Positions 24,027-44,953 are shown, numbered from the stretch's first letter. The stretch is DNA of 52,835 nucleotides from Candidatus Micrarchaeota archaeon CG1_02_51_15 (GCA_001871495.1 MNVG01000016.1:1-52835); one strand, 5' to 3'. A program made the numbers and translations. The notes: a model not told the origin generated them from the sequence alone.

Positions 24027-24511
24027 AGTACTAATTTTCCTTTTTCAATTCTTTTTCGCTTCAAGTCGGAGTAGCTCCCTTCCGCAATAGTTTTCGCGTG
24101 GTGTTGCAGCAGGATGGCCATTCCCTGGCGCGCTGACTCCCCTGTAGAGGCCATGTATGCCGTCGATTTTAATGTTAAAAGCGGGTTGGCGAATACGTCC
24201 ATCAGCTCGCCGATTGTTTCTCCCTTTATCGGAGAGTACTCTTTGTTCTGCTCGTTAAAGTGGCCGAACATTGCCCGCAGGAGTTCTTCAGTCTGTTGCT
24301 CTCTAACATGTCCGGCTAACCGGTCCAACGCCTTTACTCCTTCAAGGTAGAACCGATTTGGAAGGTAGGATTCGTAAAGCCTTCCGCATATTCTTGCGAG
24401 AAGTTTTTCGGCCTTAGAATCGATCGAATGTTTGCCTAATTTTGGATAGCGTCTGGTCAACCAGCAGGCGGTGCCCGATTTCGTAGTTGCAGTATAATTC
24501 GACGCCGCCAA
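23987..24511 (-). CDS. hypothetical protein (5' ~100 nt overlaps the upstream ORF; possibly one frameshifted gene with 24414..24728)
   Basis: 174-aa ORF. Its first ~30 codons (MAASNYTATTKSGTACWLTRRYPK) look non-protein-like, whereas the overlapping frame looks coding. Confidence 0.45.
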   Translation of the reverse strand: MAASNYTATTKSGTACWLTRRYPKLGKHSIDSKAEKLLARICGRLYESYLPNRFYLEGVKALDRLAGHVREQQTEELLRAMFGHFNEQNKEYSPIKGETIGELMDVFANPLLTLKSTAYMASTGESARQGMAILLQHHAKTIAEGSYSDLKRKRIEKGKLVLCRAIGLPKAKKK

Positions 24512-25847: not shown

Positions 25848-26411
25848 TTACAATAGGCTTACTTTCACGACTCCGTTTTCGAGGCAGTAGGAAAAGCCGA
25901 TTATTCCTTTGGCAGCTTCGTTTGCCGCCTGTCTGCGGACGCGCGAGCTGTTTTCTCGTTCGCGCAACCGTTCGAGAAGCGGCCGCAAGGGAAAGTGCAC
26001 GACCTTAAATACAGCCCTACTATTATTTAGATCAAGTACTGGAAAACGGCGGCTATGCGATCTGAAATCAATCCCGGATGCGCGCCCCAGAATTGGATGG
26101 CCAAACGTCGGGTGAGTGTGGGCATCGTAACCGCCATCAACATCAAGGCTCGGAACAACTGCAAATGCTAAGTACCTTCCATCATCCGTAAGGTTGCCCG
26201 CGGACAAATCGATATGCCCGTCGCTGTGCAATTTACTTAGGCGATCGAAAGCATTGAAAAAGGGTTGATAAGGCGACTGGAATTGCAGTTCCACCAGCCT
26301 ATTGGCGCATGCTGCAATCAATTTGGAATTCATTGCTACGGCGCTTTTGGAGTGTCGCTTTTCAGCTACGGAAACCGTATCATTTATATTAGGCCGTAAT
26401 TTCGAGCGCAA
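25848..26411 (-). CDS. hypothetical protein with weak JAMM/MPN-like HxH...S..D motif
   Basis: GGYDAHTHPTFGHPILGRASGID resembles the JAB motif HxHx(7)SxxD, but the spacer is 11 residues. The more likely start is MNSKLIAAC at 26333. Confidence 0.45.
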   Translation of the reverse strand: MRSKLRPNINDTVSVAEKRHSKSAVAMNSKLIAACANRLVELQFQSPYQPFFNAFDRLSKLHSDGHIDLSAGNLTDDGRYLAFAVVPSLDVDGGYDAHTHPTFGHPILGRASGIDFRSHSRRFPVLDLNNSRAVFKVVHFPLRPLLERLRERENSSRVRRQAANEAAKGIIGFSYCLENGVVKVSLL

Positions 26412-26764
26412 TCTTTAAGAAAACGCATTGCACTGATTTCCCGTATTTCTTTTTCAAGCCGGGGCCGTTCTTTCCGCAAGCGGTTGAAGAGGTCGAACGT
26501 CGCTTTTATGCTCTTGATTTGTTCAGGGTGAATCACTATCCGTTTGTTTGCTTCGTCGAATTTCAGCGAGACTTCTGAAACTACCGGCTTCCCCTTGCCG
26601 GTTCTTACAGTGTGCCGGTAGAGGTGCGCGTACATTTCGTGCGCAGTTTCGGCCGGAATTATTTTAGGCGGCTGGATGCTTATGGGCAGGTCAAACTGTT
26701 TTCTACTCTCGGCCTTGAACGCAGATTTTTCGCTAGAGGTATCGTTGTAGAACGCGGTTAGCAC
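26384..26764 (-). CDS. hypothetical protein
   Basis: 126-aa ORF immediately downstream of PolB, on the same strand. Confidence 0.5.
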   Translation of the reverse strand: MLTAFYNDTSSEKSAFKAESRKQFDLPISIQPPKIIPAETAHEMYAHLYRHTVRTGKGKPVVSEVSLKFDEANKRIVIHPEQIKSIKATFDLFNRLRKERPRLEKEIREISAMRFLKDCARNYGLI

Positions 26765-26825: not shown

Positions 26826-29249
26826 TCACCATTCTCCTAGTCCTTTTTGGGTTCCTTTTGCTTTGAGGTCTTCGGCGTTGACTCCCAGCGCGCCGAGTAT
26901 TTTGAGCACTGCTGGAAGGACTTGGTTGTTTACGTAGTAGTCGGAGTCGTAGTCTTTAGCGAGTTCCAAGGGCTGTGCTTTTTCGGAAATGGTTTTTCCC
27001 GCTCGGGTTACTACGTAGGCTATTGTAGAAAATTCGGAGTAAGGCAGGCCTGCTGCCTGGGCTTTTTTGAGTGCCGAGAGTTCCGGGCTCATTATTTCGT
27101 AGGAAGCCGCTTTTTTGCGCAAGTGCGTGTAGATCACGCAGTCTTCCAACGGGGTTTTTCCGTTTTTTAGTTCTTCAATTGCTCGGCGGACGAGTTCCTT
27201 GGCTTTTTCAACGCTTCCGCCGCCTAGGAGTTCTTCTAGGACTTTGCGTTGTAGTTTTCTTGCAACGCGGCTCCAGTCGCGCCGCACCAGTTCGAAGCCG
27301 CGTATCTTGATTTTGCCTTCGCGGTTTATGAGCGCGTATTTTTTCTTGGCGCCGGTTTCGCCGTGTTTTTTCGAAACGAAAATGCCTCGCGGGTAAAGGT
27401 CTTCGAGCTCCAACTCCATTCCTTGCGGGAGCGAGGCGTTGATTTTCTTGCAGAATTCGGCGATTGTTTTCTCGCCTCCTTTTTTGAATTGTAGGAGCGT
27501 GGAGTCGGTGTCGCTGTAGAGAACTTTAAAACCGGCTTTTTCGGCTTTTTCAATCGTCTCGTGAATATACTGCCGCGCCCAGGCAGTAGTGCTTTCTGCG
27601 CATTCGCGTGAGTACCATCGCGAGCGGGCGTATCCTAGAAACCCGTAATAGCTGTTGGCTAAAATCTTAAGAGCGAGTTGACGGGCGTGGAGTTGGGGGT
27701 ATTCCGCGCCGTCCTTGCCTGTTTTCTTGATGCGGGCTTGGACTTCGCGCCGCGCTTCAACTATTTCCTCAAGAGTGGTGGGAATCAGGCCTTTTTGTTT
27801 CGAGCAAAAGCAGTGGCCTTGGGGGGAAACGCTGCGTTTTTCTTTAGGGCAGCAAGTGCAGTTGAGGGACTGGAGGTCGATGTTGTGGCTGATTATTATC
27901 GAGGGATACATTGATTTGAAGTCCAGCATTGCAAGGTTTTCGTACACTCCGGGTTCGGGGGTTTTTACGTACGCTCCTTCAATAGGGTTTTGTTGCCTTG
28001 CTTGGACTTCGGGTTCGCGGGGCTTGTTGGGAATCACTTCGTTGTGTTCAAACGCCCGGCGCATTAGCAGGGTTTCCACCATTTGGCCGGTTGTACTACG
28101 CGTTGTTTCGAAAAGGGTTTCGCCGCTGAGCCGCGACAACTCCGTTTCCAATGAAAGCGTGTGCTGAGCGAGCTCGAGGCAGGAAATCGCGTCGTCGCGG
28201 TTGTACTTGGCCAAGTGCTCTAGTGCAGCGCCGCCGGCGTCCCAAGCGCGGTGGATGTCAAGCTTGTTTATGTCCGTCTTTTGCTTGCCGAGTATTCCTG
28301 CATAGGCGTGGCCCAGCGTCATGCGGGGCAGCCTTATTGCGCCTACTGTGCTGAGGAAATTGACTACAGAGTAGACGTCGTAATGGATTCTTCCTGGAAC
28401 CCGCGTTACCGGGCGCAGTCCTGCCTGGCGCGTCTGCACTCTAGAGAGCACGCGACCCGGATAGAAAGAGGCCTTGATTTTTTGGGCGCGTTTTTGCAAG
28501 AAGGGCAAGTCGAATGCGTCGCCGTTGTAAGTGCACAACAAGTCCGTCTTTTTTTCGCGCAGTATTTCGCAAAAGCGTTCGATGCACGCCTTCTCCGATG
28601 GCAGGACTTGGACGAATTCGGACTCGAATTTCTTAGAGTAGGAAAGCACGATAGGCGAGTCGCTTGGCGACGCAAGTGAAATCATTATCACCGCGTCTTT
28701 TGCAGGGTCGGGGGCGTTTGCCGGAGTGTGCACTTCGATGTCGAACGCAAGCACGTTTAGAGAAAGCGGTTTTTCAACAGAATCCACGGGCTTGATTGAC
28801 TTAACGACCTTCCCTTCGAGCTCAACTTCACACGCCGAACATGGAATTAAACCCAAGTCGATGAGGAAGCGTTTGGGAAAGGAAATGCGGTGCTCGTAAC
28901 TCTGGCCCAGTGGCTTTGTTGCTTCGTGAAGCTTGGAAATCGCCAGAGGGTCGTCGGCGTAAACCTTCAGCATTTTCACGGACTTGCGGCAGAGCATTTT
29001 CTCTACTTCTTCAACGCGGCAAGGGGAATACTGCCCTTCGCGGCCTTGGACGCGCACGTCAAGTATTTTCTTGCGCAGCGACTCCCAGTCCGTGCCTTTT
29101 TCGGGGAGCACGTAGTAGTACGGCTTGAACGAGGTTTCGTAAGCCGGAAAACTGCGTCCGCTAATGCAGTCTTTAAGGAAAAGGCGCAAGCAAGGCCGAC
29201 TGTTTAAGGAAGCGTTTTCTACGTCCAAAAGAAACGCGGTTGTTTTCAT
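26826..29249 (-). CDS. polB: family B DNA polymerase
   Basis: Exo motifs (FDIEV, YNGDAFDLPFL). Pol motif A DFKSMYPSIIISHNI, motif B KILANSYYGFLGY and motif C YSDTDS. 807 aa with no intein. Confidence 0.93.
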   Translation of the reverse strand: MKTTAFLLDVENASLNSRPCLRLFLKDCISGRSFPAYETSFKPYYYVLPEKGTDWESLRKKILDVRVQGREGQYSPCRVEEVEKMLCRKSVKMLKVYADDPLAISKLHEATKPLGQSYEHRISFPKRFLIDLGLIPCSACEVELEGKVVKSIKPVDSVEKPLSLNVLAFDIEVHTPANAPDPAKDAVIMISLASPSDSPIVLSYSKKFESEFVQVLPSEKACIERFCEILREKKTDLLCTYNGDAFDLPFLQKRAQKIKASFYPGRVLSRVQTRQAGLRPVTRVPGRIHYDVYSVVNFLSTVGAIRLPRMTLGHAYAGILGKQKTDINKLDIHRAWDAGGAALEHLAKYNRDDAISCLELAQHTLSLETELSRLSGETLFETTRSTTGQMVETLLMRRAFEHNEVIPNKPREPEVQARQQNPIEGAYVKTPEPGVYENLAMLDFKSMYPSIIISHNIDLQSLNCTCCPKEKRSVSPQGHCFCSKQKGLIPTTLEEIVEARREVQARIKKTGKDGAEYPQLHARQLALKILANSYYGFLGYARSRWYSRECAESTTAWARQYIHETIEKAEKAGFKVLYSDTDSTLLQFKKGGEKTIAEFCKKINASLPQGMELELEDLYPRGIFVSKKHGETGAKKKYALINREGKIKIRGFELVRRDWSRVARKLQRKVLEELLGGGSVEKAKELVRRAIEELKNGKTPLEDCVIYTHLRKKAASYEIMSPELSALKKAQAAGLPYSEFSTIAYVVTRAGKTISEKAQPLELAKDYDSDYYVNNQVLPAVLKILGALGVNAEDLKAKGTQKGLGEW

Positions 29250-29339
29250 GCCTTTTTGTTACTGCAAGGGCCGATAAATTGGTTTTGGGAACGGGTTTAA
29301 TAAGTCTCTTTGAATTCGTTTCTTCAGGTGAGTTTTGGC

Positions 29340-29723
29340 ATGCCCGAACCAATAAGGCCGTTTGACGCAATTAAAGCGGACTTGCGGACGCTTGATTCCA
29401 AAATAAATTTGATTGCCCAGAAGATCCGCGTGATGGAAAAGAACGAGGACGTCTTGGGAAGGACGATGGTTACGCTTAACGACAAGTTGCACAAGCTCGA
29501 AGAAAGCGGAGGGCGCGCATCTGCAGCAGCAGCAAGCAGGCCCGACTCGGGAGCCGCTTCGGAAGAACTCAAGGAAAAAGTCAAGGCGCTTGAAGAAAAA
29601 CTCGACGCCACGCACTCGCAAGTTCTTGAAATGAAGTACGTAATAGACTCGATAAACCCCTTGGAGTACGCGACAATAAACCAAGTGCGCGAACTGTTGG
29701 AAGAAAAGCTCGGGAAGAAATAG
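29340..29723 (+). CDS. hypothetical coiled-coil protein
   Basis: The ORF track starts at TTG 29310; I prefer the ATG at 29340 (MPEPIRPF). It has two helical segments joined by a Gly/Ser/Ala-rich linker (EESGGRASAAAASRPDSGAAS). The layout matches 7498..7998. Confidence 0.55.
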   Translation: MPEPIRPFDAIKADLRTLDSKINLIAQKIRVMEKNEDVLGRTMVTLNDKLHKLEESGGRASAAAASRPDSGAASEELKEKVKALEEKLDATHSQVLEMKYVIDSINPLEYATINQVRELLEEKLGKK

Positions 29724-29742: not shown

Positions 29743-31485
29743 CTACACGTTTTCGAAGGAAGGCATTTCTTCCTCTTCCCTCTTTTGTTCAGTAGTTTTT
29801 GGTACAGGCGTTTCCTTTGCAACCAGATGGGGAGCGGGTTTTTGTGCAGCCGACTCGAGCGCCTGTTGCACGGGTGCGTGTACAAGCGCGGTCGACACTT
29901 CTTTTTTAGGGGCAAAGAATTTGAACAGCGGCTTTTTCTCCTGAACTGGAGAAGCAACAGGCAACGGCGGCTTTTGAATTGCAGTTGCAACCGGTGCGGT
30001 TACGGACGCCATTGCAGAGTCGGAGGAAAGTTTTTCAGTGCACTGCGAGTACGTCGGGCGCAAGGCAAACCGCAGTGGCCGTTCTCCTTTTTGTGCGCCT
30101 ATTGCCTCCATGCCGATCGACTCGAAGGCGGCAGTCAGTTCGCCGAACTGTCTTACGTCAACTTCGTGCTGTTCGTGCATCAATATGCCTACGCCTTGTC
30201 CGCGGTACTTGGACAACGCGGACTGGATTTCGTTGGACACCTGTGAAGCCTCGTTTTCAAAAGCGAGCACTAAAGAAAGCGAAGCAGACGGCGGAACGGG
30301 AATCGCTTCAATTACCGTAGCAATGAGCATGCGTTGTATCTCAAGAGGGTATTTCTTGAGGTTAAGCAACAACACTTTACCTACTGCGTCCCGCCAAGGC
30401 GTGGCCAAGTCGGCCGAAATGTTTTTGGCAAACAACGAAGGATACATTTTCTGGAGCACTTGAAGCACGCGGACTGCCCGGCGAAGGTTGAACATCGAAA
30501 CGCTTTTCGACTCCTTCATTGAAGCCAATTCGTTTATGACGTCCGAAAGCGAGAAAAGCGAAGCGCGTTTGGCGTCGTAAGCCGCTTTTATGGGTTCGGC
30601 CACCTCGCTTCCAGACAAGTAGAACCCGCGGAGGAAAGCGTCCGCATCTATTTTGCTCAAGTCAACATAAAGTCCTTCACCGAGTTCGAAAACCTTGAAC
30701 GGAAAACCGGTTGGAGTTCCCGACATTCCGAACTCGGAAAAGCTTGCCGAATCCCGGTTCGGAAGCCCGAACCCCCTGAAGGAATCGCCTGAATCGAATA
30801 TGAGTACGGTCACGCCGTTTTGCAGCGCGCCTTCTATGATAACGTGCATCAAATGCCGTCTGGACTCGCGCGTTCCACCGGTTATGGCCGCGTTGTAGAG
30901 AGAGTCGAGCTTTATTTCAAATTCTTTCTTCTCGCGGTCCAATCCAAGCAACAACTTGGGAAAATGCAGCGCAGCTTCCGCCGAAGTGCCCGGGCCGGTT
31001 CCGCCTGCGGAGGTATACGCGAAAAGCGAGAACGGGTCTCCCAAAAGCAACTGGGTCTGCGCTTCATCAACCAAACTAAAGTCGGTCAACTTGAACCCAT
31101 AAGCCGACGCAGTGTCCTTGGTTAACGACGCAACGCCTTCAAGCTCCAAATACTGTTTTTTAAGCACGCCCACCAAAGCGTCTTGGGAATACGCACAGTA
31201 CTCGGGAGTGGCGCCTACCATGAGGTAACGCCCGGAATTGTCTTTCGAATATTTTTCAACCAAAGTAACTTCACGCTTTTGGGCCTGCATGAAACGCGCG
31301 AGGTCGCCTTCGGCGTAAAAAACTTTCTTCAAAAGCATTACCGCGCCAGTAACGTTTTCGTCGCGTTTTTCGAAAACCATCAGCATAACTAGCTTCTCGG
31401 GGTTCTGGTAAATCGCTAGCGGATATTTTCCCCACTGAGCCGTAACCAAGCGAGTCCACGGCCCGTAAGGCAAGTCCAGTTCCAT
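29743..31485 (-). CDS. HerA/FtsK/VirB4-like (DUF87-type) NTPase homologue with degenerate Walker A/B, plus a Pro/Lys/Ala-rich C-terminal tail
   Basis: LDSLYNAAITGGTRESRRHLMHVIIEGALQNGVTVLIFDSGDSF has the layout of the HerA P-loop region (l..H.aI.G.TGSGKS......ie.....g..vlIfD..GEY), but GK[ST] is replaced by RESRR. LVLAFENEA sits where hhhhDEAH is expected, and YRGQGVGILMHEQ where RKyGvg....tQ is expected. I chose the start MELDLPY (31485) because the ORF-track extension to 31617 overlaps the divergent gene. Confidence 0.5.
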   Translation of the reverse strand: MELDLPYGPWTRLVTAQWGKYPLAIYQNPEKLVMLMVFEKRDENVTGAVMLLKKVFYAEGDLARFMQAQKREVTLVEKYSKDNSGRYLMVGATPEYCAYSQDALVGVLKKQYLELEGVASLTKDTASAYGFKLTDFSLVDEAQTQLLLGDPFSLFAYTSAGGTGPGTSAEAALHFPKLLLGLDREKKEFEIKLDSLYNAAITGGTRESRRHLMHVIIEGALQNGVTVLIFDSGDSFRGFGLPNRDSASFSEFGMSGTPTGFPFKVFELGEGLYVDLSKIDADAFLRGFYLSGSEVAEPIKAAYDAKRASLFSLSDVINELASMKESKSVSMFNLRRAVRVLQVLQKMYPSLFAKNISADLATPWRDAVGKVLLLNLKKYPLEIQRMLIATVIEAIPVPPSASLSLVLAFENEASQVSNEIQSALSKYRGQGVGILMHEQHEVDVRQFGELTAAFESIGMEAIGAQKGERPLRFALRPTYSQCTEKLSSDSAMASVTAPVATAIQKPPLPVASPVQEKKPLFKFFAPKKEVSTALVHAPVQQALESAAQKPAPHLVAKETPVPKTTEQKREEEEMPSFENV

Positions 31486-31555
31486 TACGCAAAAAACCCC
31501 GTATACCACAACGGAACAGGGTTTTAAAAACCATTTTGCCGTATTTGTTTCAACA

Positions 31556-32002
31556 ATGGACATTAAAGTAATAGTAAGGCAGATGAAAGCACGCGGACTG
31601 CCTGAAGAAGAAATCAAGAAAAACCTTGAAGCACTCGGGGTTCCTAACCCTGATGAGGTCTACACCGAGGCAATCGAACGCGCAACCGAAGTACAACTGC
31701 CGCCAGTACAAGCCGAAGAACCCAAGGCAGAGTCAGTGGTGCAGCCTGTTGAGGAAATGCCGAAGTTTGAAATGACCAGCATTTCCGGCGAAGAAGAAAA
31801 GGCAATGGCAATAGGCAAAACAGCCACGCGAAATGCGCAAGCAGAAGCAGACGGCCTCATGACTGCAATGCCCAAAACCACGTCAGGAGAACTCACAGGC
31901 AAAATGGATGAAACCATTGCCCTTCTTAAAGCACTTCAGGACATCAACAAGAAAATCCTTGAAACAAACAAGGAAATGCTCATGCGGCTCAAAATGAAGT
32001 GA
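31556..32002 (+). CDS. hypothetical protein (small helical N-domain, acidic linker, C-terminal helix)
   Basis: 148-aa ORF divergent from the HerA-like gene. Its last 22 codons are duplicated 90 nt downstream. Confidence 0.55.
   Translation: MDIKVIVRQMKARGLPEEEIKKNLEALGVPNPDEVYTEAIERATEVQLPPVQAEEPKAESVVQPVEEMPKFEMTSISGEEEKAMAIGKTATRNAQAEADGLMTAMPKTTSGELTGKMDETIALLKALQDINKKILETNKEMLMRLKMK
31936..31988 (+). repeat. 53-bp exact direct repeat, copy 1 (3' end of CDS 31556..32002)
   Basis: TCAGGACATCAACAAGAAAATCCTTGAAACAAACAAGGAAATGCTCATGCGGC is identical to 32026..32078. Confidence 0.95.
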
Positions 32003-32025: not shown

Positions 32026-32078
32026 TCAGGACATCAACAAGAAAATCCTTGAAACAAACAAGGAAATGCTCATGCGGC
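32026..32078 (+). repeat. 53-bp exact direct repeat, copy 2 (orphan gene-end fragment)
   Basis: Same 53 nt, offset by exactly 90 nt. It is followed by its own in-frame stop (..MRPNMQ*) and separated from copy 1 by TGA and TAA stops. Confidence 0.95.
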
Positions 32079-32731
32079 CGAATATGCAGTGAACAAAAAT
32101 GGCCGAAACTAGGATAACCGCCCGCGAAAAAGGACCGCATCGCACGGAAACTCCTCCAAAAGATGCGCACAAAAAAAACTTGGACGCAATAGGGCGCAAA
32201 AAGAGCAATTGAAAAACACGCTCGCCTCGCCAGAGAAACGCAAGAAAACGCGGACTTCATAAAAGCAAACCGAGAATCCTTCAAAGATGGAACTATTTTT
32301 CTGCAAAAAAAAGGGATGCCTACAGTTAAGTGAAAAGCTGGCGCACTTAATGATTTTCCTCAACTGAAACGCAACCATTCTTGCGCCTTATTATTAGCCG
32401 CAAGTGACAGCAGACACTACTTTGTTGACCCTTTAAAATTATACGCGTGGTCGGACACACGCCCAACGTGGGCGGCAAGAATACACGAGAATCGTACTAT
32501 TATTGTCCACCCTAACCACTCACTTGAAGCATGCGAAGTGTTCAAGCGGGTTGCACACCACGTCCAACCCCGTTCACGTCGTTTAAGGGCCTCTAAGACG
32601 CCCTTGCAAAAGTGATTACCGACTACGAACGCGAAGCAGAACATCACCGTAAAATTGCTGAAGCTTACCAACGCGGTTTGAACCTGAAGCTTTCAGCCTA
32701 AAAAAATAGTTCAAGCAAATTCTTGAAACGC

Positions 32732-33079
32732 TTACTTCTTGAGTTGAACCACCAAAGTTGGCGTGTCGTCCTTCTTTTTTTCAGGCTCTTTTCCGAACGA
32801 ACCCCAGAAAGCGCCGAACAGGTTTCCGATAAAGTTAATGAAGTACCCGAAGCGCTCGCCAATTTCCTTTTCGCCGCCAAACGCCTTTTTCTCAGTGCCA
32901 TCCAAGCCGGAGTTAAAAGGCCGTGGCGAAGTGGGCGCGCGTTCTCCGCCGCTTTCCATCATCAGCGCGACGGCCAACCCGGCAATGAACAAGAAAGCGA
33001 AGAACACCTGCCCGGATTGTAAGAAGAACAACACGACAATCAACAGAATCAACGTAATTATTGCGTTCAAAACCTTCAC
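32732..33079 (-). CDS. small membrane protein 7 of 7 (2 TM plus a charged C-terminal tail)
   Basis: 115 aa. Its start abuts the stop of the upstream gene with 0-nt spacing. Confidence 0.6.
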   Translation of the reverse strand: MKVLNAIITLILLIVVLFFLQSGQVFFAFLFIAGLAVALMMESGGERAPTSPRPFNSGLDGTEKKAFGGEKEIGERFGYFINFIGNLFGAFWGSFGKEPEKKKDDTPTLVVQLKK

Positions 33080-33367
33080 TCACCTTGCGTAACCGCCGTA
33101 AGCGCCTGCTTCAGGACCTGCGGAATCGCCTTTGACTAGCAAAACGAGTACGACGAACAAGCCTATTAAGTAAGCCCATGGCGGAGTCGAAGGCCCTAAA
33201 AGAAAGCCCACGCCGGCAGTTGCGCCGCCTGCAATTGCAGCAACAATCATCAGCTTGCTTTTTGCGCTCAAAAACAGCAGCACCAACAACCCCACTGCAA
33301 GCCACCACAAGCCGCTCTGCATTGCAATAACCATAAGGACTGCTATGAATAGAAAGGTAAAATCCAT
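33080..33367 (-). CDS. small membrane protein 6 of 7 (3 TM)
   Basis: 95 aa and almost entirely hydrophobic. There is a 3-nt gap to the upstream gene. Confidence 0.6.
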   Translation of the reverse strand: MDFTFLFIAVLMVIAMQSGLWWLAVGLLVLLFLSAKSKLMIVAAIAGGATAGVGFLLGPSTPPWAYLIGLFVVLVLLVKGDSAGPEAGAYGGYAR

Positions 33368-33370
33368 TTT

Positions 33371-33601
33371 TTAACCCAGGAACGCAAGCCACTCCATCAA
33401 AATGCCCCTAATACCGCCTATTACGTTTAACGCAGTAGTCAGGAAGAAATCGACTTTGAAGGTAAAGAAAGCAAGCCCGCCCAGGCACAACAAGGAAAGC
33501 ATGGGATCGCCGTATTCTGCAAAGTAAACTACGCCTGCGCCGACTGCAAGAAAACCCAGAATCTCGGGGTCGCTTAAAAATCCTAACGAAGTTTCAATCA
33601 T
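33371..33601 (-). CDS. small membrane protein 5 of 7 (2-3 TM)
   Basis: 76 aa and hydrophobic. There is a 13-nt gap to the upstream gene. Confidence 0.55.
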   Translation of the reverse strand: MIETSLGFLSDPEILGFLAVGAGVVYFAEYGDPMLSLLCLGGLAFFTFKVDFFLTTALNVIGGIRGILMEWLAFLG

Positions 33602-33614
33602 TTAAACCAACAAC

Positions 33615-33878
33615 TTAAAACCATTTTTTGGGGTCGACTACGGTGAACAAGCCGTACATTACCAACACCGCGAACAACAAGTACTTGAACCAATCGTAAG
33701 GCAACACCAACAGGAAGATTATCAACGCAGTAACCAGCAAGGCCAGTAGCGGGTGGCGTATAAAATTATTGGACAACAGGTTGTACAACGTGAAGAAAAC
33801 CAGGATTAATGCAACCAAGCCAAAGGCTTCTCCGAAGTCAGTGTACAACAACGCCGGCAGAAACGCTTGTTCGAACAT
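33615..33878 (-). CDS. small membrane protein 4 of 7 (3 TM; paralogue of protein 2)
   Basis: 87 aa. RHPLLALLVTALIIFLLVLPYDW aligns with FSPLLTMVVAAVLIYYLVIVYPW of 34299..34580. Confidence 0.6.
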   Translation of the reverse strand: MFEQAFLPALLYTDFGEAFGLVALILVFFTLYNLLSNNFIRHPLLALLVTALIIFLLVLPYDWFKYLLFAVLVMYGLFTVVDPKKWF

Positions 33879-33908
33879 GTTAGGAAATAATTTTGTAAAC
33901 TCGACGAT

Positions 33909-34298
33909 TTAAAGCCTGCGTTTGGCAAGCGATTTCTTCAATTTACCGCTATTGGTCGCGCCAAAGACTTTTTTGAACTCCGAAGCAAGTTCTGCGTAAA
34001 GCTTGCGCGTGCCGAGGATAAACTCGCCTTCAAGCATTACCGCGTAAAGCAGTGCTCCGAACATCATTCCGCCTGCAAACCACGAAAACACGCGCTCTCC
34101 TAAGGAAACTCCTTCTTTAAGGTTGGAAACAACCTGCCCGCTGACTTGCGGATATTCGGAAAGCAAGTACTGCCAAGTTATCCACGAAACAGCTATTGCA
34201 ACGACTATTACGGCCAAGCGCCACTTGGGGTTGAACCACTTGGCGCGGTGAGCGCTGGCAAAACTGTACAGTTCCAAGAAACCCATTTTTTCAACCAT
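33909..34298 (-). CDS. small membrane protein 3 of 7 (2-3 TM plus a basic C-terminus)
   Basis: 129 aa. There is 0-nt spacing to the upstream gene. Confidence 0.6.
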   Translation of the reverse strand: MVEKMGFLELYSFASAHRAKWFNPKWRLAVIVVAIAVSWITWQYLLSEYPQVSGQVVSNLKEGVSLGERVFSWFAGGMMFGALLYAVMLEGEFILGTRKLYAELASEFKKVFGATNSGKLKKSLAKRRL

Positions 34299-34580
34299 TT
34301 ATTCCAAACCCCTTTTTTTCTTATGCACGAACCTGAACAAAAACGGCGCAAACACCGAACCAAAGTACAGTATTCCCGAGAACATCAAAATCGATAAAAT
34401 CCAGCCTATGAACCCGGCCCAAGGATAGACTATCACCAAATAGTAAATCAAGACCGCTGCAACCACCATTGTAAGAAGCGGCGAAAACGCCAGGTGCTCC
34501 TGCGCCCAATTGTAGTAGTAATACGCCATAAGGAATACGACTATCCACCAAACCCACTGCAATTCTTCAAGGAACAACAT
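34299..34580 (-). CDS. small membrane protein 2 of 7 (3 TM, Trp/Tyr-rich)
   Basis: 93 aa. There is a 9-nt gap to the upstream gene. Confidence 0.6.
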   Translation of the reverse strand: MLFLEELQWVWWIVVFLMAYYYYNWAQEHLAFSPLLTMVVAAVLIYYLVIVYPWAGFIGWILSILMFSGILYFGSVFAPFLFRFVHKKKRGLE

Positions 34581-34589
34581 GAAATATCA

Positions 34590-35060
34590 CTACATCATTC
34601 TTCGCCGCATCAGCTGCTCCTGCATCATTCCCGTATTCTGCTGTGCCTTCATCTGCTTGGCAGTCCAGCCTTCCATGAAATCCTGCTCGGCCTGGTTCAA
34701 GGGCTGGCCTTCCGACATTTTTTCTTCAAGACGCATGGCTTCGCTCTGTTCAAATTGATGCTTGTGTCCTCCTATGCCAAACGCGCCGAGAATCGGTTCC
34801 AAACCGAATTGCACGAGCATCTGCACTTGGTTACCGAATACCACGAACAAGAAGAACGCAAGCAGCAGAAAAACCACGGAAACCGCGTGGATGAAGAAAA
34901 AATAAGCGGCCACTATCACTGCAAGCCCGAAGAGAACCTGGTTCTCGCGGAACATCATGTACAACTGGAACAACAAGTAGGAAAACGCGATTATCTTTAC
35001 TACGAACCACAAGTCGCCGAAAGCCTCCAACAATACAAGCCCGACGGCAAACGAAAACAC
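34590..35060 (-). CDS. small membrane protein 1 of 7 (4 TM plus a Gln/Met-rich soluble tail)
   Basis: 156 aa and the first gene of the array. Confidence 0.6.
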   Translation of the reverse strand: MFSFAVGLVLLEAFGDLWFVVKIIAFSYLLFQLYMMFRENQVLFGLAVIVAAYFFFIHAVSVVFLLLAFFLFVVFGNQVQMLVQFGLEPILGAFGIGGHKHQFEQSEAMRLEEKMSEGQPLNQAEQDFMEGWTAKQMKAQQNTGMMQEQLMRRRMM

Positions 35061-35183
35061 TGTTGCAATACCCCGTCAAAGCGTAACGCAACCGCGGTTA
35101 AAAAAACTTGGTTCCCGACAAAACGTGAACAAAACAAGGCATGCTGACGCGCAAGGTCTCAACTTCTTAATACACCCAGCCCG

Positions 35184-35729
35184 CTAAGCCCGTTTGCCGC
35201 GATAACCTGCCGAAGACACGATTGAGAAAATGTCTTTTTCATCGTAGATTGCCTGCAGTAAGTTTCTAAACATGAACGCCTTGGCCAAACCAGTCTTTTC
35301 TTGAATCATAATCAGTTCCAATACTTTGGCTATGAATTCAACGCTGTATTCGCCGTAACTGTCGAGTTTTTCGAATTGTTCAATATTGTGTTTGGTGCTG
35401 ACTTTCAACTCGCATTCTTGCTGCTGCGTTTGGTTTCCGAACGGCTCTGTCTTATCCCACATCCCTAGCAAAAACTTGACAAACTCCAAAGTAAGAGTTC
35501 GATTGTGTTCTTTCTTTATCAGCAAATCTATTGCCCAGTGCAAATGTTGAGGCGTCCTCACTCGCTTGCCCGCCTCTCGATATTTGACAATAATGTCCAA
35601 GTCGGAATTTGCTCCTCGTCGCCCCTGAAAAACGCCGATGACTACTCCTTTTTTAGTAAGAAATTCTTTGAACGCCCGCGCCTTCGGTGGTTTTAAGCCG
35701 TCACCGGGCGTTTTTGGTTGGTATTCCAT
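35184..35729 (-). CDS. hypothetical protein associated with the R-M locus
   Basis: The ORF-track start is TTG at 35735; I prefer the ATG at 35729 (MEYQPK). It is divergent from the putative endonuclease across only ~34 bp. No motif recognised. Confidence 0.5.
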   Translation of the reverse strand: MEYQPKTPGDGLKPPKARAFKEFLTKKGVVIGVFQGRRGANSDLDIIVKYREAGKRVRTPQHLHWAIDLLIKKEHNRTLTLEFVKFLLGMWDKTEPFGNQTQQQECELKVSTKHNIEQFEKLDSYGEYSVEFIAKVLELIMIQEKTGLAKAFMFRNLLQAIYDEKDIFSIVSSAGYRGKRA

Positions 35730-35733
35730 ACCC

Positions 35734-35756
35734 AAATAAATCCGTAGCGATTATAT
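35734..35756. promoter_or_regulatory. back-to-back TATA-like boxes in a 34-bp divergent intergenic region (implies leaderless mRNAs)
   Basis: AAATAAAT (35734-35741) lies 23-30 nt upstream of ATG 35764. TTATAT (35751-35756, read on the minus strand) lies 22-27 nt upstream of ATG 35729. Confidence 0.35.
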
Positions 35757-35763
35757 CAAGGTT

Positions 35764-36294
35764 ATGATTCGCAGGGGAACGGAGGGCAGGACGCCGCTTA
35801 GGCACGGGCTTCGTTTTGAGAAGCGGACTGATTTGGCGACGGTTATCGCGAGACTGCCTGACTTTTGTGTTAAGGGCGACTCGGTCGAGTATCGCGGAAA
35901 GGAAGTTGCCTTGCTTTACAAGAAGAACAAGCTTTACTCCAAACTACTGCAGCCAATGGGCGCGGATTACCGCAGGTTCATATCGAAAAGACTGTTGTCG
36001 GACGACGTGGTTCTCGTGTTGGTGGACAAGACGCTTTTCATAATCGAAACCGAGTTTCAAACGGTGGCGGGTTCAGTTGATGAAAAGCTTCAGACCTGTG
36101 GCTTCAAGTTAAGGCAGTACAAGAAGCTGTTCGAACCGATTGGCCTTAAGGTAAAGTATGCGTACGTGCTAAACGATTGGTTCAAGAAGCCAGAGTACAA
36201 GGACGTCCTGGACTACATTAAGTCAGTTGATTGTGATTACTTCTTCTACGAGCTTCCTTTGAGCTATTTGGGGTTCCCAGTTCCGGACAATTAG
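35764..36294 (+). CDS. putative type II restriction endonuclease (PD-(D/E)xK-like)
   Basis: VLVDKTLFIIETEFQTVAGSVDEKL has the D...(E)x(E/K)-then-helix pattern seen in small type II REases. It is adjacent and convergent to a Dam-class methyltransferase. No family-level match can be made by eye. Confidence 0.45.
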   Translation: MIRRGTEGRTPLRHGLRFEKRTDLATVIARLPDFCVKGDSVEYRGKEVALLYKKNKLYSKLLQPMGADYRRFISKRLLSDDVVLVLVDKTLFIIETEFQTVAGSVDEKLQTCGFKLRQYKKLFEPIGLKVKYAYVLNDWFKKPEYKDVLDYIKSVDCDYFFYELPLSYLGFPVPDN

Positions 36295-37146
36295 TTCCTT
36301 TACTTTCCCACGCCGGTCTCCCTTGCAGTTAATTGCCCGGTTGGCGCAAACCGTTTCAAGCTCAAACTCGGCGTAAAGATCGCGCGTAAAATCCGAAAAC
36401 GAGTTGCTCAACAACACGTAACAGCCCCGAGCATCAAGTTCCCTAACGGTCGCCAATAGCTTTTCCTGATCACTTTCAAAAAAGCCTTTTTCAGTATATC
36501 CCGTGAAGCTGGACGCCTTCGAAACCGGGACGTAAGGGGGATCGAAGTAAACCAAGTCTCCTTTCTTGGCATTATTCAATACAACAGCAAAATCGCCGCA
36601 GTACAACTCGTCTTTTTGCAACGCGCGGTGTACCCTGATCAAGTTCTCACTGTCGAGTATCTTGGGATTGGCGTACTTTCCGAATGGAACGTTAAAACCG
36701 CCCTTGGAGTTTACGCGGTACAACCCGTTGAAAGCGGTTTTATTCAAGTAGATGAAACGCGCCGCCCGACCGATATCGGAAACAGGTTTTGACGCACGAA
36801 CCGCGTAGTAAGCAGTGGAATTATTGGCGTACTTTGGAAGCGCGAGTTCGGCCATCAGCTCGAAAACGTGGCTTTTTATCGTACGATAGGCGTTGATTAG
36901 TTCCGCGTTAGAGTCGCTCAAGAAAGCGGTGTGCGCAAAATCCGCAGATTCTGCGACATGTCGGTTTGCCTGCGGCAAACCGCACATCTTTAAACGGTTT
37001 TCGGCCTCAAGCCGGAAGAACACGGCCCCGCCGCCAAGGAACGGCTCGTGATAGTTCCTAAATACTGGCAATCCTTTGGTGAGCTCGTTCATAAGCTGCC
37101 GCTTGCCGCCCGCCCACTTTACGAATGGTTTTGCTTCACTTAACAC
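36223..37146 (-). CDS. DNA adenine methyltransferase, D12 (Dam) class
   Basis: PFVKWAGGKRQL at the N-terminus, EPFLGGGAVFF (SAM binding) and the catalytic DPPY (VYFDPPYVP). GTG start. Confidence 0.88.
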   Translation of the reverse strand: MLSEAKPFVKWAGGKRQLMNELTKGLPVFRNYHEPFLGGGAVFFRLEAENRLKMCGLPQANRHVAESADFAHTAFLSDSNAELINAYRTIKSHVFELMAELALPKYANNSTAYYAVRASKPVSDIGRAARFIYLNKTAFNGLYRVNSKGGFNVPFGKYANPKILDSENLIRVHRALQKDELYCGDFAVVLNNAKKGDLVYFDPPYVPVSKASSFTGYTEKGFFESDQEKLLATVRELDARGCYVLLSNSFSDFTRDLYAEFELETVCANRAINCKGDRRGKVKELIVRNWEPQIAQRKLVEEVITIN

Positions 37147-41072: not shown

Positions 41073-42047
41073 ATGCTTGCCTTACCCAAGAACAAAGCGC
41101 GGGATTTTCTGCTTGAATTAAAGCGCGCAGAGCCCAATCGCCAAGTGTTGGCGCCAATTGCAGACGGGCGCGAAACCAGGTATTTCATCTTCCCATCTAC
41201 ATTCCCGCTTTTCACTGAATCCCTGCCATCTTACTCTGCCAAAAAGTTTTTTCTCCCACCTCGCGAAGACCTCTTTAGGTTCAGAGCCGCCAAAGGAAAA
41301 TACGAGGCAACAGAAGAAAACTTGGAGTGCGACCGCGTGCTTTTCGGACTACGCCACTGCGACGTGCACGGACTCAAGGTTTTGGACAAGTTCTTCAACG
41401 ACGACTCGTCGGACAACTACTGGCGCAGGCGCGAAGGCACTGCAATTATTGCGTTGAACTGCCCGCAGCCTGCGGCCTCGTGTTTTTGCGACGCAATGGG
41501 AACGCGGCACTCTAAAGGAGCGGACGTTGAACTTGAAGATGCGGGAAAAGAATGGCTGTTGGAAGCAAAGACCCGCGTCGGAAAAAAGCTGGCTGCCCAA
41601 ACAAGCGAAACACTGGTTGAAAGCAACGCCAAACCGCTACAGGAAGAGCCATGCGCGATTAACGCATCCAAGCACAAGCTGCTTGCACTTAAAGAAAACG
41701 AAGGTTTTTGGGACGCCATTGCTTCAGGCTGCTTAAACTGCGGAGCGTGCAACATCGTCTGCCCAACGTGCACTTGCTTCGACGTTGAAGACGACTGCAC
41801 GCTTGAAGGCGAGGGCTCGCGATGCAGGCACTGGACGAGCTGCGTGTTGAACGACTACACCCGAACTGCAGGAGACCACGTTTTTAGAAAAGGCAATCGC
41901 GAAAAGGCATTGATTCGCGTCCAGCACAAGCTGGGTTGGTTTAAAGAAAAGTTCGGCGAAGCAAGTTGCACAGGCTGCGGCCGCTGTTCGTTGCACTGCC
42001 CGACTAAAGTATCGACTGCAGACGTTGCACTAAAGTGGTTGAAATAA
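41073..42047 (+). CDS. hydB: group 3b [NiFe] hydrogenase (sulfhydrogenase) beta subunit, 4Fe-4S protein (AsrA-like)
   Basis: Ferredoxin-type clusters CLNCGACNIVCPTCTCF and CTGCGRCSLHCP. It is the first gene of a four-gene cluster in the order beta-gamma-delta-alpha. Confidence 0.8.
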   Translation: MLALPKNKARDFLLELKRAEPNRQVLAPIADGRETRYFIFPSTFPLFTESLPSYSAKKFFLPPREDLFRFRAAKGKYEATEENLECDRVLFGLRHCDVHGLKVLDKFFNDDSSDNYWRRREGTAIIALNCPQPAASCFCDAMGTRHSKGADVELEDAGKEWLLEAKTRVGKKLAAQTSETLVESNAKPLQEEPCAINASKHKLLALKENEGFWDAIASGCLNCGACNIVCPTCTCFDVEDDCTLEGEGSRCRHWTSCVLNDYTRTAGDHVFRKGNREKALIRVQHKLGWFKEKFGEASCTGCGRCSLHCPTKVSTADVALKWLK

Positions 42048-42841
42048 GTTCCTATATTCCCGAAAAAGCGAAAATCATCGGATTGAAAGACGAGACACGC
42101 GACATTAGGACGTTCACGCTTGAAGAAGGCGGAAAAAAAGCGTTTTTCTTCGAACCAGGCCAGTTCGTCGAACTCTCGGTAATAGGAGTCGGTGAAAGCC
42201 CGTTCTCGATTTCCTCAGCGCCAGGCGAGGCATTGGGACTGACGGTAAAAAACGTCGGGGACGTCACGCAGGCAATGTTTAATTTGAAAAAAGGAGATGA
42301 AGTCGGCGTGCGCGGGCCTTTTGGCACGCATTACCCGCTTGAGAAAATGACGGGCCGCGACCTTGTTTTCGTCGCAGGCGGCTTCGGAATGGCTTCGCTG
42401 GCTTCGGCAGTCAAGCACGCGCTCCGCAACAAAAAAAAGTTCGGCCGCCTTTCGCTTTACTACGGCGCAAGAAGCCCTGACGAATTCGTTTTCACTTCCG
42501 AAATCAAGCAATGGACCAAACGCGGGTTGAAAGTAACCCGCACAATAGACAATAAGTGCAAAGGATGGAAAGAATGCGTAGGATTCGTCCACGAGGCAAT
42601 GAAACACAGGCCCCCGTCCAAAGACTGCACGGCGTTCGTGTGCGGTCCCCCGCGAATGATTGACGCGGCTGCGGCGCAGCTTGCAGACACCGGCATCTCC
42701 GAAAAACGCATTTTCGTTTCGTTGGAACGCAAGATGTGCTGCGGAATAGGAAAGTGCGGCCACTGCCTAGTGCACGGCAAGTACGTCTGCAGGGACGGGC
42801 CGGTGTTCAACTACGAAGAAGCCAAAGAAGTAATGGAATGA
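42035..42841 (+). CDS. hydG: group 3b hydrogenase gamma subunit (FNR-like FAD/NAD(P)-binding oxidoreductase with C-terminal 2Fe-2S; AsrB-like)
   Basis: FNR-like beta-barrel (PGQFVELS), NAD(P)-binding VFVAGGFGMA, and the C-terminal cluster CCGIGKCGHCLV. It overlaps hydB by 13 nt. Confidence 0.8.
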   Translation: MVEISSYIPEKAKIIGLKDETRDIRTFTLEEGGKKAFFFEPGQFVELSVIGVGESPFSISSAPGEALGLTVKNVGDVTQAMFNLKKGDEVGVRGPFGTHYPLEKMTGRDLVFVAGGFGMASLASAVKHALRNKKKFGRLSLYYGARSPDEFVFTSEIKQWTKRGLKVTRTIDNKCKGWKECVGFVHEAMKHRPPSKDCTAFVCGPPRMIDAAAAQLADTGISEKRIFVSLERKMCCGIGKCGHCLVHGKYVCRDGPVFNYEEAKEVME

Positions 42842-42850
42842 TAACCTTCA

Positions 42851-43621
42851 ATGAAAACCAAAAAAATCAGGGCGGGAGTTTTTTCGTTTACGGCCTGTTA
42901 CGGCTGCCAACTCCAGCTTTTTAAGGCCGAAGAGTTCATGGAAACAATCAAGGCAATCGACTTCGTTGACTTCGAACTCGTTTCGGAAAAAAGCGACGAA
43001 AAAACGGCGTTGGACGCCGCGTTCGTTGAAGGCGCAATAGCACGCGCCGAACAAGTTCCACTCCTGAAGAAAATCCGCGAACGCACTTCTTTTCTGGTTG
43101 CAATAGGCGCCTGTGCTTGCGACGGAGGCATTCCCGCAATCAAGTCGTTTTGCAACGAGGCCGAAGCCGAGCGCACGGTTTACAGCGAGGACTTTCGCAA
43201 GAACCTGCACTCGATAAGTCCAAGGCCTATTGACGCGCACGTGAAAGTCGATTACTACATGCGCGGCTGCCCAGTAGAACGCACGGAATTCCACAAGGTT
43301 GCGCGCGCGCTTGCCTTGGGTAGACGGCCTCGGGAAAAAAGGCAGCCGGTCTGCGTCGAGTGCAAGATAAAAGAAAACGTCTGCTTATTCGAACTGGGCC
43401 GAACTTGCCTGGGGCCAATAACAAACGGCGGCTGCAAGGCACTGTGCCCATCCAACAACGCGGCGTGCGAAGGCTGCAGGGGCGCATCTTGGGACGCCAA
43501 CTTACCTGCATTCGTAGGCCTGCTTGAAAAGTATAACGTGCCCCGCAGCCGAATCAAGCAGATGCTGCAAAGGTTCAGCGGACGAAACAAGGAGTTTGAA
43601 GAATTCGTTAAAAAACTTTGA
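42851..43621 (+). CDS. hydD: group 3b [NiFe] hydrogenase delta (small) subunit
   Basis: N-terminal FTACYGCQ (proximal cluster), GACACDGG, and C-terminal Cys clusters (CVECK...C; GGCKALCP...CEGC). This matches the NuoB/20-kDa-like hydrogenase small-subunit pattern. Confidence 0.8.
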   Translation: MKTKKIRAGVFSFTACYGCQLQLFKAEEFMETIKAIDFVDFELVSEKSDEKTALDAAFVEGAIARAEQVPLLKKIRERTSFLVAIGACACDGGIPAIKSFCNEAEAERTVYSEDFRKNLHSISPRPIDAHVKVDYYMRGCPVERTEFHKVARALALGRRPREKRQPVCVECKIKENVCLFELGRTCLGPITNGGCKALCPSNNAACEGCRGASWDANLPAFVGLLEKYNVPRSRIKQMLQRFSGRNKEFEEFVKKL

Positions 43622-43639
43622 CGTAACAGGGACTGCAAA

Positions 43640-44953
43640 ATGGAAAAAAAGACGATCCGAATCGAGCGGCTTTCGAAGATAGAAGGCCACGCCAACCTCT
43701 CGGTTTCACTCGAAGGAAAGAAAGTCACGGACGTGAAGATGAAGGTTTTCGAGGCCGCGCAGTATTACGAAGCAATGGTAAAAAGCAAGCCATTTCACGA
43801 AATTCCGTTGACAACTGCGCGTATTTGCGGCTTCTGTTCACAAGCACACCAGAACACCGCGTTGCAGGCGATTGAAAACGCGCTGGACATCGAACCGTCT
43901 AGGCAGACAATGTTGTTGCGCGAGCTGCTTCAGATAGGCCAGTTCGTAACCAGTCATTCGCTGCACTTGTATTTCTTGGCGTTGCCCGACTACCTGGGTT
44001 TCGACAATGCGATTCAAATGGCGTCCAAACACCCGCGGGAAGTGCAGCAAGCGCTTGAAATCAAGCACGTTGCAACCGAGCTAGTTAACGCAGTAGGCGC
44101 ACGGGAAATCCACTCGATAAACGCAATGGTTGGCGGATTTTCAAGCATTCCTACAAAGTCCAAGCTGGAAATGTTGCGCAACAAAGTGACGCAATCAAAG
44201 CAAGCTTCGCTGGAGTGCGTTAAGACGTTCGGTTCGCTGCAAACGCCTGACTTCCAAATCCCCGCACACTACGCGTGTCTTTTCCAAGAAGGCGATTACC
44301 CTTTGATGGATGGAATGATTGAATCAAGCGAGTGCCAAGCCGACGGAGGAAAATGCATTCAAGTAAATAAGACGCATTACCGCACGGCAATAAGGGAATA
44401 CTTGAAGCCGTACTCGAGCGCAAAGTTCGCGACGTTTGCCGACTCTACTTACTTTGTTGGCGCGCTTGCACGCGTAAACAACCATTACCCGTTGCTTTCG
44501 GAAGACGCCAAGAAAGCGGCGGAAGAAACAGGCGTTCGCTTTCCGAACCATTCTCCGTTTATCAACAACCTTGCGCAGGCAATCGAACTCGTGCACTTCC
44601 ACGACCGCGCAATAGAAATTCTGGAAGAACTTTCGAAAACGATTGCGAACGAGCCGCTGCCACGCATTGAAGGCCGCGCCGGAACGGGAGTGGGCGCAAC
44701 AGAAGCACCTCGGGGAATATTGTTGCACGAATACGAACTTGATTCCGCAGGACGAGTGGAGCACGCAAACATAGTTACGCCGACTGCGCAGAACCTGCGG
44801 CACTTGGAGCAGAGCATCCGCGAGTACGTGCCGTGGCTCTTGCACCTTAGCGACGAAAAAATTTCGTTGGAACTCGAAAAGCTCGTGCGGGCGTACGACC
44901 CGTGCTTCTCGTGCGCAACACACTTCCTTAAATTAAAGCTCGAAAGGAAATAA
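43640..44953 (+). CDS. hydA: group 3b [NiFe] hydrogenase alpha (large, catalytic) subunit
   Basis: N-terminal Ni-Fe ligand motif RICGFCSQAH (RxCGxCxxxH) and C-terminal DPCFSCATH (DPCxxCxxH). Confidence 0.9.
   Translation: MEKKTIRIERLSKIEGHANLSVSLEGKKVTDVKMKVFEAAQYYEAMVKSKPFHEIPLTTARICGFCSQAHQNTALQAIENALDIEPSRQTMLLRELLQIGQFVTSHSLHLYFLALPDYLGFDNAIQMASKHPREVQQALEIKHVATELVNAVGAREIHSINAMVGGFSSIPTKSKLEMLRNKVTQSKQASLECVKTFGSLQTPDFQIPAHYACLFQEGDYPLMDGMIESSECQADGGKCIQVNKTHYRTAIREYLKPYSSAKFATFADSTYFVGALARVNNHYPLLSEDAKKAAEETGVRFPNHSPFINNLAQAIELVHFHDRAIEILEELSKTIANEPLPRIEGRAGTGVGATEAPRGILLHEYELDSAGRVEHANIVTPTAQNLRHLEQSIREYVPWLLHLSDEKISLELEKLVRAYDPCFSCATHFLKLKLERK

Follow-up and report, generated by a model that had tools for sequence, protein, structure and literature searches.

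The stretch analysed here, called the window throughout, is 52,835 nt of Candidatus Micrarchaeota archaeon CG1_02_51_15 (GCA_001871495.1, MNVG01000016.1:1-52835). It carries PolD DP1/DP2, PolB, L10e and a group-3 [NiFe] hydrogenase, marking it as archaeal, and is part of a Micrarchaeota (DPANN) chromosome. At 32732-35060 seven minus-strand open reading frames (ORFs), designated S1-S7, stand back to back and encode very small membrane proteins. Downstream of them lie a plus-strand gene for a 148-aa soluble protein, here called OPP (31556-32002), and a minus-strand gene for a 580-aa HerA/VirB4-fold protein (29743-31485), recognised by AlphaFold2 and Foldseek. We refer to the array with these two neighbours as the module.

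The S1-S7 array

From ORF calls and hydropathy, the array consists of S1 (34590-35060, 156 aa), S2 (34299-34580, 93 aa), S3 (33909-34298, 129 aa), S4 (33615-33878, 87 aa), S5 (33371-33601, 76 aa), S6 (33080-33367, 95 aa) and S7 (32732-33079, 115 aa), all on the minus strand, with intergenic gaps of 9, 0, 30, 13, 3 and 0 nt; S1, which would be the first gene of the operon, and S7 have GTG starts. A public assembly of this organism (GCA_013330065.1, contig DUJA01000096.1) has gene calls for the identical seven products. Kyte-Doolittle windows give each protein two to four hydrophobic helices, namely about three plus an amphipathic segment in S1, three in S2 and S4, two in S3, S5 and S7 and three to four in S6, with the weakest hydropathy in S5 (maximum 1.68). 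An earlier sequence-only reading of the window, which had described these ORFs as a possible multi-subunit membrane channel or platform, gave the same lengths, gaps and helix numbers. The region upstream of the operon (35061-35183, minus strand) has an A/T-rich box, TTTTTTTAA, at 35106-35098, about 38 nt ahead of the S1 start, which to judge by its letters may be a TATA-like element.

Homologues were sought with HMMER among 1.84 billion representative proteins, using the seven proteins concatenated as query. The search returned 126 homologues, each of them small, with one matched segment of about the size of the subunit concerned. Families were found for six of the seven S proteins, with sizes, in 50%-identity clusters, of 37 (S1), 33 (S3), 29 (S6), 19 (S4), 4 (S2) and 3 (S7); S5 matched only itself among the representatives. 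We further gathered 34 loci (L001 to L034) from genome and metagenome collections, about 25 of them independent. Against two relatives, the proportion of nonsynonymous differences (pN) was 0.13-0.35 for S1-S4, S6, S7 and both neighbouring genes, at saturated synonymous values (pS) of 0.65-0.8; dN/dS was about 0.15 for S1 and about 0.1 for the 580-aa gene. S2 is the most conserved component, at 80-81% identity to L004 and L005, compared with 65% for the large 580-aa neighbour. All seven are real genes, far beyond chance, and S1-S4, S6 and S7 are under strong purifying selection. The exception to this constraint is S5, with 34% identity to L004 and a pN of 0.46, and absent in the locus scans from L005 and from all more distant loci; it appears to be a fast-evolving, clade-restricted gene, either accessory or young. 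The idea that S5 is a degenerate S7-type hairpin was dropped, its match to the S7-like family reaching only E 0.32.

The subunits differ in their soluble parts and conserved residues. S1 has about three transmembrane (TM) helices and an amphipathic FGLxP segment, followed by a helical tail of about 60 aa, rich in Gln, Met and Glu and ending in RRR; F19, Y28, F44, F85, G86 and G118 are near-invariant in its alignment. The first of the three TM helices of S2 is rich in Trp and Tyr and is followed by the motifs EHLAFSPLLT and EHP. S6 has a conserved N-terminus (MDFTFLF) and a short Gly/Ala/Tyr tail. One S6-family protein of 107 aa (P0136) carries the JGI label 'cell division protein FtsW (lipid II flippase)', which looks spurious because of that size and because the S6 family has no FtsW profile match. 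S7 combines an N-terminal hairpin (TM helix, polar SG turn, TM helix) with a Gly/Lys/Glu-rich amphipathic tail; its hairpin family occurs in one to three tandem copies in relatives, with S7-like copies in L015, L018, L020, L030 and L031.

In S3 a soluble N-terminal region of about 23 aa with short cytoplasmic helices leads into TM1, an outer loop of about 17 aa, and a TM2 that continues as a basic helix of about 39 aa. Soluble tails are therefore not confined to the first and last proteins, as the sequence-only reading had supposed. Six residues (F74, G77, G81, E90, G91 and E92) are invariant in the alignment of 34 S3 sequences, and the motif to which they belong, WF..G...G....EGE(F) at the membrane boundary, is the only invariant charged motif of the array. 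AlphaFold2 models S3 as a hairpin with helices at 24-48 and 66-128 (predicted local distance difference test, pLDDT, 84), the second of which would span the membrane at 66-89 and carry on without a break as a cytoplasmic helix at 90-128, with EGE on the boundary. Foldseek found no PDB fold match for this model.

Two members of the array are ancient paralogues, S2 and S4. Their Smith-Waterman score is 80 (z = 6.5 against shuffles), an S2 query also matches S4-family members with phmmer, and hhalign aligns the two families over 68 columns with a probability of 91.7% and E = 7.6e-7, so that the alignable core claimed for them in the sequence-only reading is borne out. That reading took the pair for an in-situ duplication, which stands as ancient paralogy and fails as a recent event, because each locus of sufficient length has both families, apart from L012 and L016, in which no S4 was found. 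Elsewhere in the all-against-all profile comparison, S1 and S2 reached 62.6% over 87 columns, so that S1, through its three-helix core, may belong to this group as a third paralogue, and every other pair stayed below 35%. A relationship of S6 to the S7-like family was considered and found no support in the profile comparison.

Conservation of the module and its HerA/VirB4-fold protein

Nine hidden Markov models (S1-S7, OPP and the 580-aa gene) were used to scan the loci, S3-based locus finding relying on a 10-sequence subset of the S3 alignment. All named relatives are Candidatus Micrarchaeota or Micrarchaeia, and the distant metagenomic loci carry no taxon name. The order S1-S2-S3(-S4-S6-S7) is intact in every locus covering it, down to about 25-30% identity, with S4 and S6 next wherever the sequence suffices; the exceptions are L012 and L016, where S1-S3 alone remain together. 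The order kept across loci shows that these genes form one conserved unit, as had been proposed from the window. OPP and the 580-aa gene follow 0.3-4.5 kb downstream of the array in 12 of the 15 independent loci with enough sequence, so the survey of gene neighbourhoods in relatives recovered the expected synteny with the HerA-like gene. Outer flanks vary by lineage and include ribosomal proteins, RNA polymerase subunits, ProRS, DNA ligase, a DHH/RecJ-like protein, PolB, PolD and a tRNA endonuclease. The module is chromosomal and vertically inherited, flanked by housekeeping genes, and is not a mobile island.

Three lineages part from this pattern (L012, L016 and L033/L034), with no HerA-like gene within 9 kb of the array or of S1-S3 alone, and because of them the linkage must be called strong and not obligatory. 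They bear on the alternative that the S proteins form a membrane complex, or are simply co-expressed small membrane proteins (for instance in envelope or lipid homeostasis), independent of the HerA-like gene, whose adjacency would be inherited gene order. Such independence would suit these lineages, which lack the HerA-like and OPP genes within 9-10 kb, and the separate transcription units of those two genes. Adjacency nonetheless persists down to about 22-28% identity of the 580-aa protein while all the outer flanks have been reshuffled, which would not be expected without selection, and we hold the alternative to be quite unlikely.

The module also differs in gene content by lineage. Directly upstream of S1, 20 loci have a gene, S0, for a four-helix membrane protein of about 151 aa without a Pfam match (for example L012 8666-9127, L021 3017-3472, L030 4723-5178 and L018 8642-9109); S0 is absent from the whole window and from the loci of the closest relatives. 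Distant loci add two or three tandem S7-like hairpins and a three-helix gene of about 90 aa, bringing the module to as many as a dozen co-linear genes.

The start of the 580-aa protein, at 31485 (MELDLP.GPW), is fixed by the family alignment. Its sequence matched nothing in Pfam or the PDB, the sole trace being TraC (VirB4) at E 0.054 in the P-loop region, and a profile search for distant, possibly active relatives returned the same Micrarchaeota set alone. An AlphaFold2 model built from eight homologues (pLDDT 73.8, core about 90, with a disordered Pro/Ala/Gln tail at 483-580) was more informative: a beta-barrel like that of HerA takes up the first 100 residues, followed by a P-loop-type core. 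Foldseek gave 76 PDB matches at E <= 1e-3, with HerA (4d2i) at E 1e-10 and also SIR2-HerA, TdpAB, TrwB and FtsK; phage HerA-like proteins were matched too, and the VirB4 C-terminal domain (4ag5) aligned with a TM-score of 0.50-0.55 at a root-mean-square deviation of 6-7 Å. On this model, the protein has the FtsK/HerA/VirB4 type of ASCE (additional strand, catalytic glutamate) P-loop fold with an N-terminal barrel.

Its nucleotide site is degenerate. The P-loop reads T202-GGTRESRR-210, with Arg209 at the position of the Walker A Lys and no Ser or Thr after it; the Arg is invariant in 13 aligned sequences, and a GK[ST] Walker A was found in none of the 12 copies. In Walker B (LVLAFE) the Asp is replaced. 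No protein with a canonical Walker A is present in or beside the cluster at any locus. The degenerate HerA-like neighbour of the sequence-only reading is thereby upheld, by its HerA/VirB4/TrwB fold, by the family-wide loss of Walker A and by its synteny in 12 of 15 loci. The motifs suggest a conserved non-catalytic ring or scaffold; with the Lys-Ser/Thr pair missing from its P-loop and no intact ATPase encoded close by, we read the ring as a scaffold or gate and not as a motor.

OPP, a small coiled-coil protein, has a small N-terminal helical domain, an acidic linker and a conserved C-terminal helix (LDExIALLKALQDINKKILETN), and has no Pfam or PDB match. Its gene invariably runs against the array and diverges from the HerA-like gene, a pairing kept in 12 loci; in the window the two are separated by a 70-bp intergenic region (31486-31555) with a central TTTTAAAA box. 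A plus-strand gene for a 137-aa coiled-coil protein (29310-29723), convergent with the HerA-like gene, occupies the same position in six loci. It gave only weak matches, of coiled-coil type, and is possibly an accessory component.

Possible roles of the module

We found no counterpart of the module in any library searched, nor in the literature searched. No S protein rose above the cut-off in Pfam or NCBIfam, no component matched in PHROGs or PADLOC, and PDB profile searches for S1, S3, S6 and S7-like proteins gave nothing meaningful. One-by-one scans of 36 S1 and 20 S4 homologues pointed to no consistent family. The profiles and homologue scans agree with the sequence-only reading, which had recognised no transporter, pilin, ATP-synthase or Mrp signature, and they assign the set to no known complex. 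The many small hydrophobic subunits, the hairpins, the stalk-like long helix of S3 and the weak ATP-synt_B, MotA_N and ExbD matches that single S1 homologues gave might point to a complex for bioenergetics or ion translocation, whose small subunits would be like those of Mrp, ATP synthase or a stator. We find such a complex scarcely credible: no profile match is consistent, no conserved charged residue lies within a TM helix (EGE being at the membrane boundary), and the partner fold is FtsK/HerA, not F1/V1.

Tentatively, and with limited confidence, we favour a reading in which S1-S7 are one operon for a lineage-specific hetero-oligomeric membrane complex that works with the inactive HerA/VirB4-like ring and OPP, in a platform-like role. 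S1-S2-S3 would form the core of the complex, joined by S4 (the S2 paralogue), S6 and one or more S7-type hairpins, with S5 as a clade-specific add-on. The soluble partners would be OPP and the ring-forming FtsK/HerA/VirB4-fold protein with its degenerate nucleotide site. Docking of the HerA-like ring would fall to the parts that project from the membrane, namely the S1 and S7 tails and the long, basic helix that S3, with its invariant EGE, extends into the cytoplasm. The ring would act as a scaffold or gate instead of a motor, while OPP may be an adaptor or regulator. Such a layout would resemble the inner-membrane platform of type IV secretion systems (T4SSs) and of the Ced and Ted systems, having a VirB3-like two-TM subunit, 'pilin-like' hairpins and a VirB4-fold ring, and in an episymbiotic archaeon it might most plausibly serve cell-cell contact or uptake, as a platform or conduit in the envelope.

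Several observations, together with the three lineages that lack the linkage, weigh against this proposal. No membrane subunit is similar in sequence or fold to those of T4SS, Ced, Ted or anything else; there is no polytopic protein of VirB6/CedA size; the HerA-like gene and the array do not share a transcription unit; and all known T4SSs have an active VirB4 as their signature, while the ring protein here is predicted to be inactive. Membership in these systems fails for want of an active ATPase, of a VirB6-like subunit and of any detectable homology, and we therefore say, with modest confidence, only that the module may work like a T4SS/Ced inner-membrane platform, but a static one. The channel or platform of the sequence-only reading survives in this form, as a conserved unit linked to the HerA-like gene; its likeness to Ced or conjugative proteins is not supported. 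The specific tie drawn there to CedA/CedA1/CedA2 or to small proteins of conjugative plasmids finds no sequence or fold similarity and no subunit of VirB6/CedA size, and the ATPase homologue is predicted inactive.

VirB3 is a protein of 10-15 kDa with two TM helices, a C-terminal helix and cytoplasmic ends, encoded beside virB4 (PMC12857230). S3 resembles it in topology (129 aa, two TM helices and a long C-terminal helix), but is separated from the VirB4-fold gene by four genes and one opposite-strand gene. An active archaeal T4SS-derived DNA-transfer system, of the Ced/Ted or conjugation-like kind, would make S3 the VirB3, the S7 hairpins VirB2-like pilins and the 580-aa protein the VirB4 motor moving DNA; the ring fold, the S3 topology and the tandem hairpin genes are what it would predict. 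The missing sequence matches are not decisive here, because the Ced and Ted components themselves share no recognisable sequence similarity. What makes such a system very unlikely is the loss of the Walker A Lys-Ser/Thr pair in all copies and of the Walker B Asp, with no other ATPase in the cluster. A VirB6/CedA/TedA-like subunit (at least five TM helices) was not found in the module, where the largest membrane subunits are S1 (about three TM helices, 156 aa) and, in relatives, S0 (about four, some 151 aa). The S3 model has no PDB match, and the profile of S7 and its tandem paralogues, all TM-turn-TM hairpins, returned no pilin from the PDB. Type IV pilins and archaellins are not recognised in the array either: direct reading of the S-protein N-termini showed no class III signal peptide, and the cluster has no T2SSE or PilC gene.

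Several known systems come close to the module. The Ced and Ted DNA-import systems (CedA/CedA1/CedA2/CedB; TedA/TedB/TedC; PMC9905601) are likewise archaeal, chromosomal and domesticated, not plasmid-borne, with a VirB4/HerA-fold gene near several tiny membrane proteins that include two-helix hairpins, and with components too divergent for sequence searches. They differ in that the ring of the module lacks the Walker A and B residues, that the module has no CedA/TedA (VirB6-like) subunit of six to seven TM helices, and that it has 7-12 small subunits, compared with two or three; they are also crenarchaeal and not micrarchaeal, and no subunit homology is detectable.

The nearest biological analogy would seem to be the chromosomal T4SS of epibiotic Saccharibacteria (Patescibacteria), which is essential, has six tandem divergent VirB2-like pilins and is needed for growth on the host (PMC12857230). 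There too an ultrasmall episymbiont with a reduced genome keeps a conserved chromosomal cluster, in which tandem divergent small hairpin proteins and a VirB3-like two-TM protein are found near a VirB4-fold protein. In the saccharibacterial system, however, VirB1/3/4/6/8/D4 homologues can be recognised and the ATPases are active, whereas the module has nothing recognisable by sequence and a VirB4-fold protein predicted to be inactive; the envelopes, archaeal and bacterial, differ as well. In Nanohaloarchaeota, too, a connection has been drawn between VirB4/TraG-like domains and interaction with the host. We can imagine, as a doubtful extension of the platform reading, that the module is the DPANN counterpart of the Patescibacteria T4SS, reached by extreme T4SS divergence or by convergence: a host-contact conduit with a VirB3-like S3, polymerising S7-type hairpins and a paralogous S1/S2/S4 core on a dead ring, which would take up lipid, nucleotides or DNA from Thermoplasmatales-type hosts without a dedicated ATP motor.

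HerA hexamers (HAS-barrel plus FtsK/HerA ATPase, as in HerA-NurA, SIR2-HerA and DUF4297-HerA) supply the best whole-chain structural matches to the ring protein, sharing its N-terminal beta-barrel and P-loop core. The module differs from them in its degenerate nucleotide site, in having membrane proteins as partners and in lacking a PADLOC match or a SIR2, DUF4297, nuclease or NurA partner. Non-catalytic FtsK-like domains have a precedent in EccC/EssC of type VII secretion, where FtsK-like ATPase domains of this sort form a regulatory or scaffolding ring under a membrane complex of small subunits. The module might be akin to this arrangement, as an FtsK/HerA-family ring with impaired motifs combined with small membrane subunits; EccC, however, has a membrane anchor of its own and one or more domains that are still active, whereas the ring protein here consists of one soluble domain and has no active partner in its vicinity.

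DPANN archaea, Micrarchaeota included, depend on hosts, and their contact-site machinery is essentially unknown. Because it is apparently lineage-wide, strongly constrained and invisible to profile libraries, the module offers a concrete candidate for this machinery. Its ring would be a plain example of an FtsK/HerA/VirB4-fold protein retained as the non-catalytic partner of a membrane complex, and even with another function, such as envelope biogenesis or chromosome anchoring, the module defines at least eight new protein families. The EGE motif of S3 and R209 of the ring protein are residues open to testing.

Surroundings of the module

DNA-replication genes adjoin the module, different ones in different lineages: PolB, PolD DP1/DP2, an ATP-dependent DNA ligase and a DHH/RecJ-like gene (window 26826-29249 and 10388-15936; L016 4440-7973; L021 178-2004; L028 7608-8687; L030 3397-4683), and in L016 and L028 a tRNA-splicing endonuclease is also near. 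Genomes this small could produce such adjacency by accident, or it could point to a DNA-related role. If the latter, the module might be a scaffold, anchored in the membrane, that takes part in replicating, segregating or dividing the chromosome, its inactive ring tethering DNA or replisome factors to the S-protein anchor. HerA and FtsK relatives act on DNA, and the module is housekeeping-like, vertically inherited and strongly constrained. The neighbours, however, vary by lineage and do not share the orientation of the array, none of the components gave a match to a DNA-binding domain, and the adjacency may be fortuitous because small DPANN genomes are dense in informational genes; we consider this role unlikely.

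Directly upstream of S1 in the window is a restriction-modification-like island (35184-37146). It comprises an ORF of 183 aa without a match, another of 176 aa that weakly matches PD-(D/E)XK, and an overlapping gene for a Dam-type D12 N6-adenine methyltransferase. The island adjoins the cluster as it might in a decaying or domesticated remnant of an integrated plasmid or membrane-containing virus, elements that encode FtsK/HerA-type ATPases and many small membrane proteins; degenerate ATPase motifs and faint P9_TM (E 0.25) and TraC (E 0.054) matches would fit as well. Such an origin strikes us as extremely unlikely. The restriction-modification genes are private to this organism (L001 and L002), other lineages having S0 or unrelated genes in their place, and the module itself has housekeeping flanks, strong purifying selection and a wide, order-conserving vertical distribution. 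No relatives were found in IMG/VR viral contigs and no matches in PHROGs (plasmid collections were not searched), and no integrase, capsid or tRNA gene is nearby. Readings of the module as a provirus, a plasmid or a defence system were set aside on the negative results from IMG/VR, PHROGs and PADLOC.

Between S7 and OPP the window has a 730-nt spacer, in which the final 67 nt of the OPP gene (31936-32002) are repeated, with 94% identity, 90 nt downstream at 32026-32092. Rfam and repeat scans of the spacer found nothing beyond this duplication, and the remaining 640 nt or so (32093-32731) have no convincing ORF and no Rfam match. The spacer is an insertion or scar private to this lineage, because in L004 the stop codons of S7 and OPP are only 14 nt apart.

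Other large genes accompany the module in relatives. The most divergent locus (L031, 7745-11104) has genes of 401, 358 and 348 aa without a Pfam match between the hairpin genes and the OPP/HerA-like pair. Very large ORFs, possibly for surface proteins, are found just upstream of the array in L012 (3-8669, at least 2888 aa), L005 (73-5541, 1822 aa) and L031 (1-3075, at least 1024 aa). Within the window, sizeable ORFs of up to 704 aa at 1115-3229, 3810-4961, 17993-18937, 23415-24511 and 25848-26764 have no Pfam match, and those at 19723-21858 and 21851-23368, with weak Peptidase_C25 and Big_2 matches alone, may encode surface proteins. A four-gene group-3-type [NiFe] hydrogenase is present at 41073-44953, with Fer4_22, NAD_binding/DHODB_Fe-S, Oxidored_q6 and NiFeSe large-subunit matches (precomputed Pfam annotation of the matching public contig).

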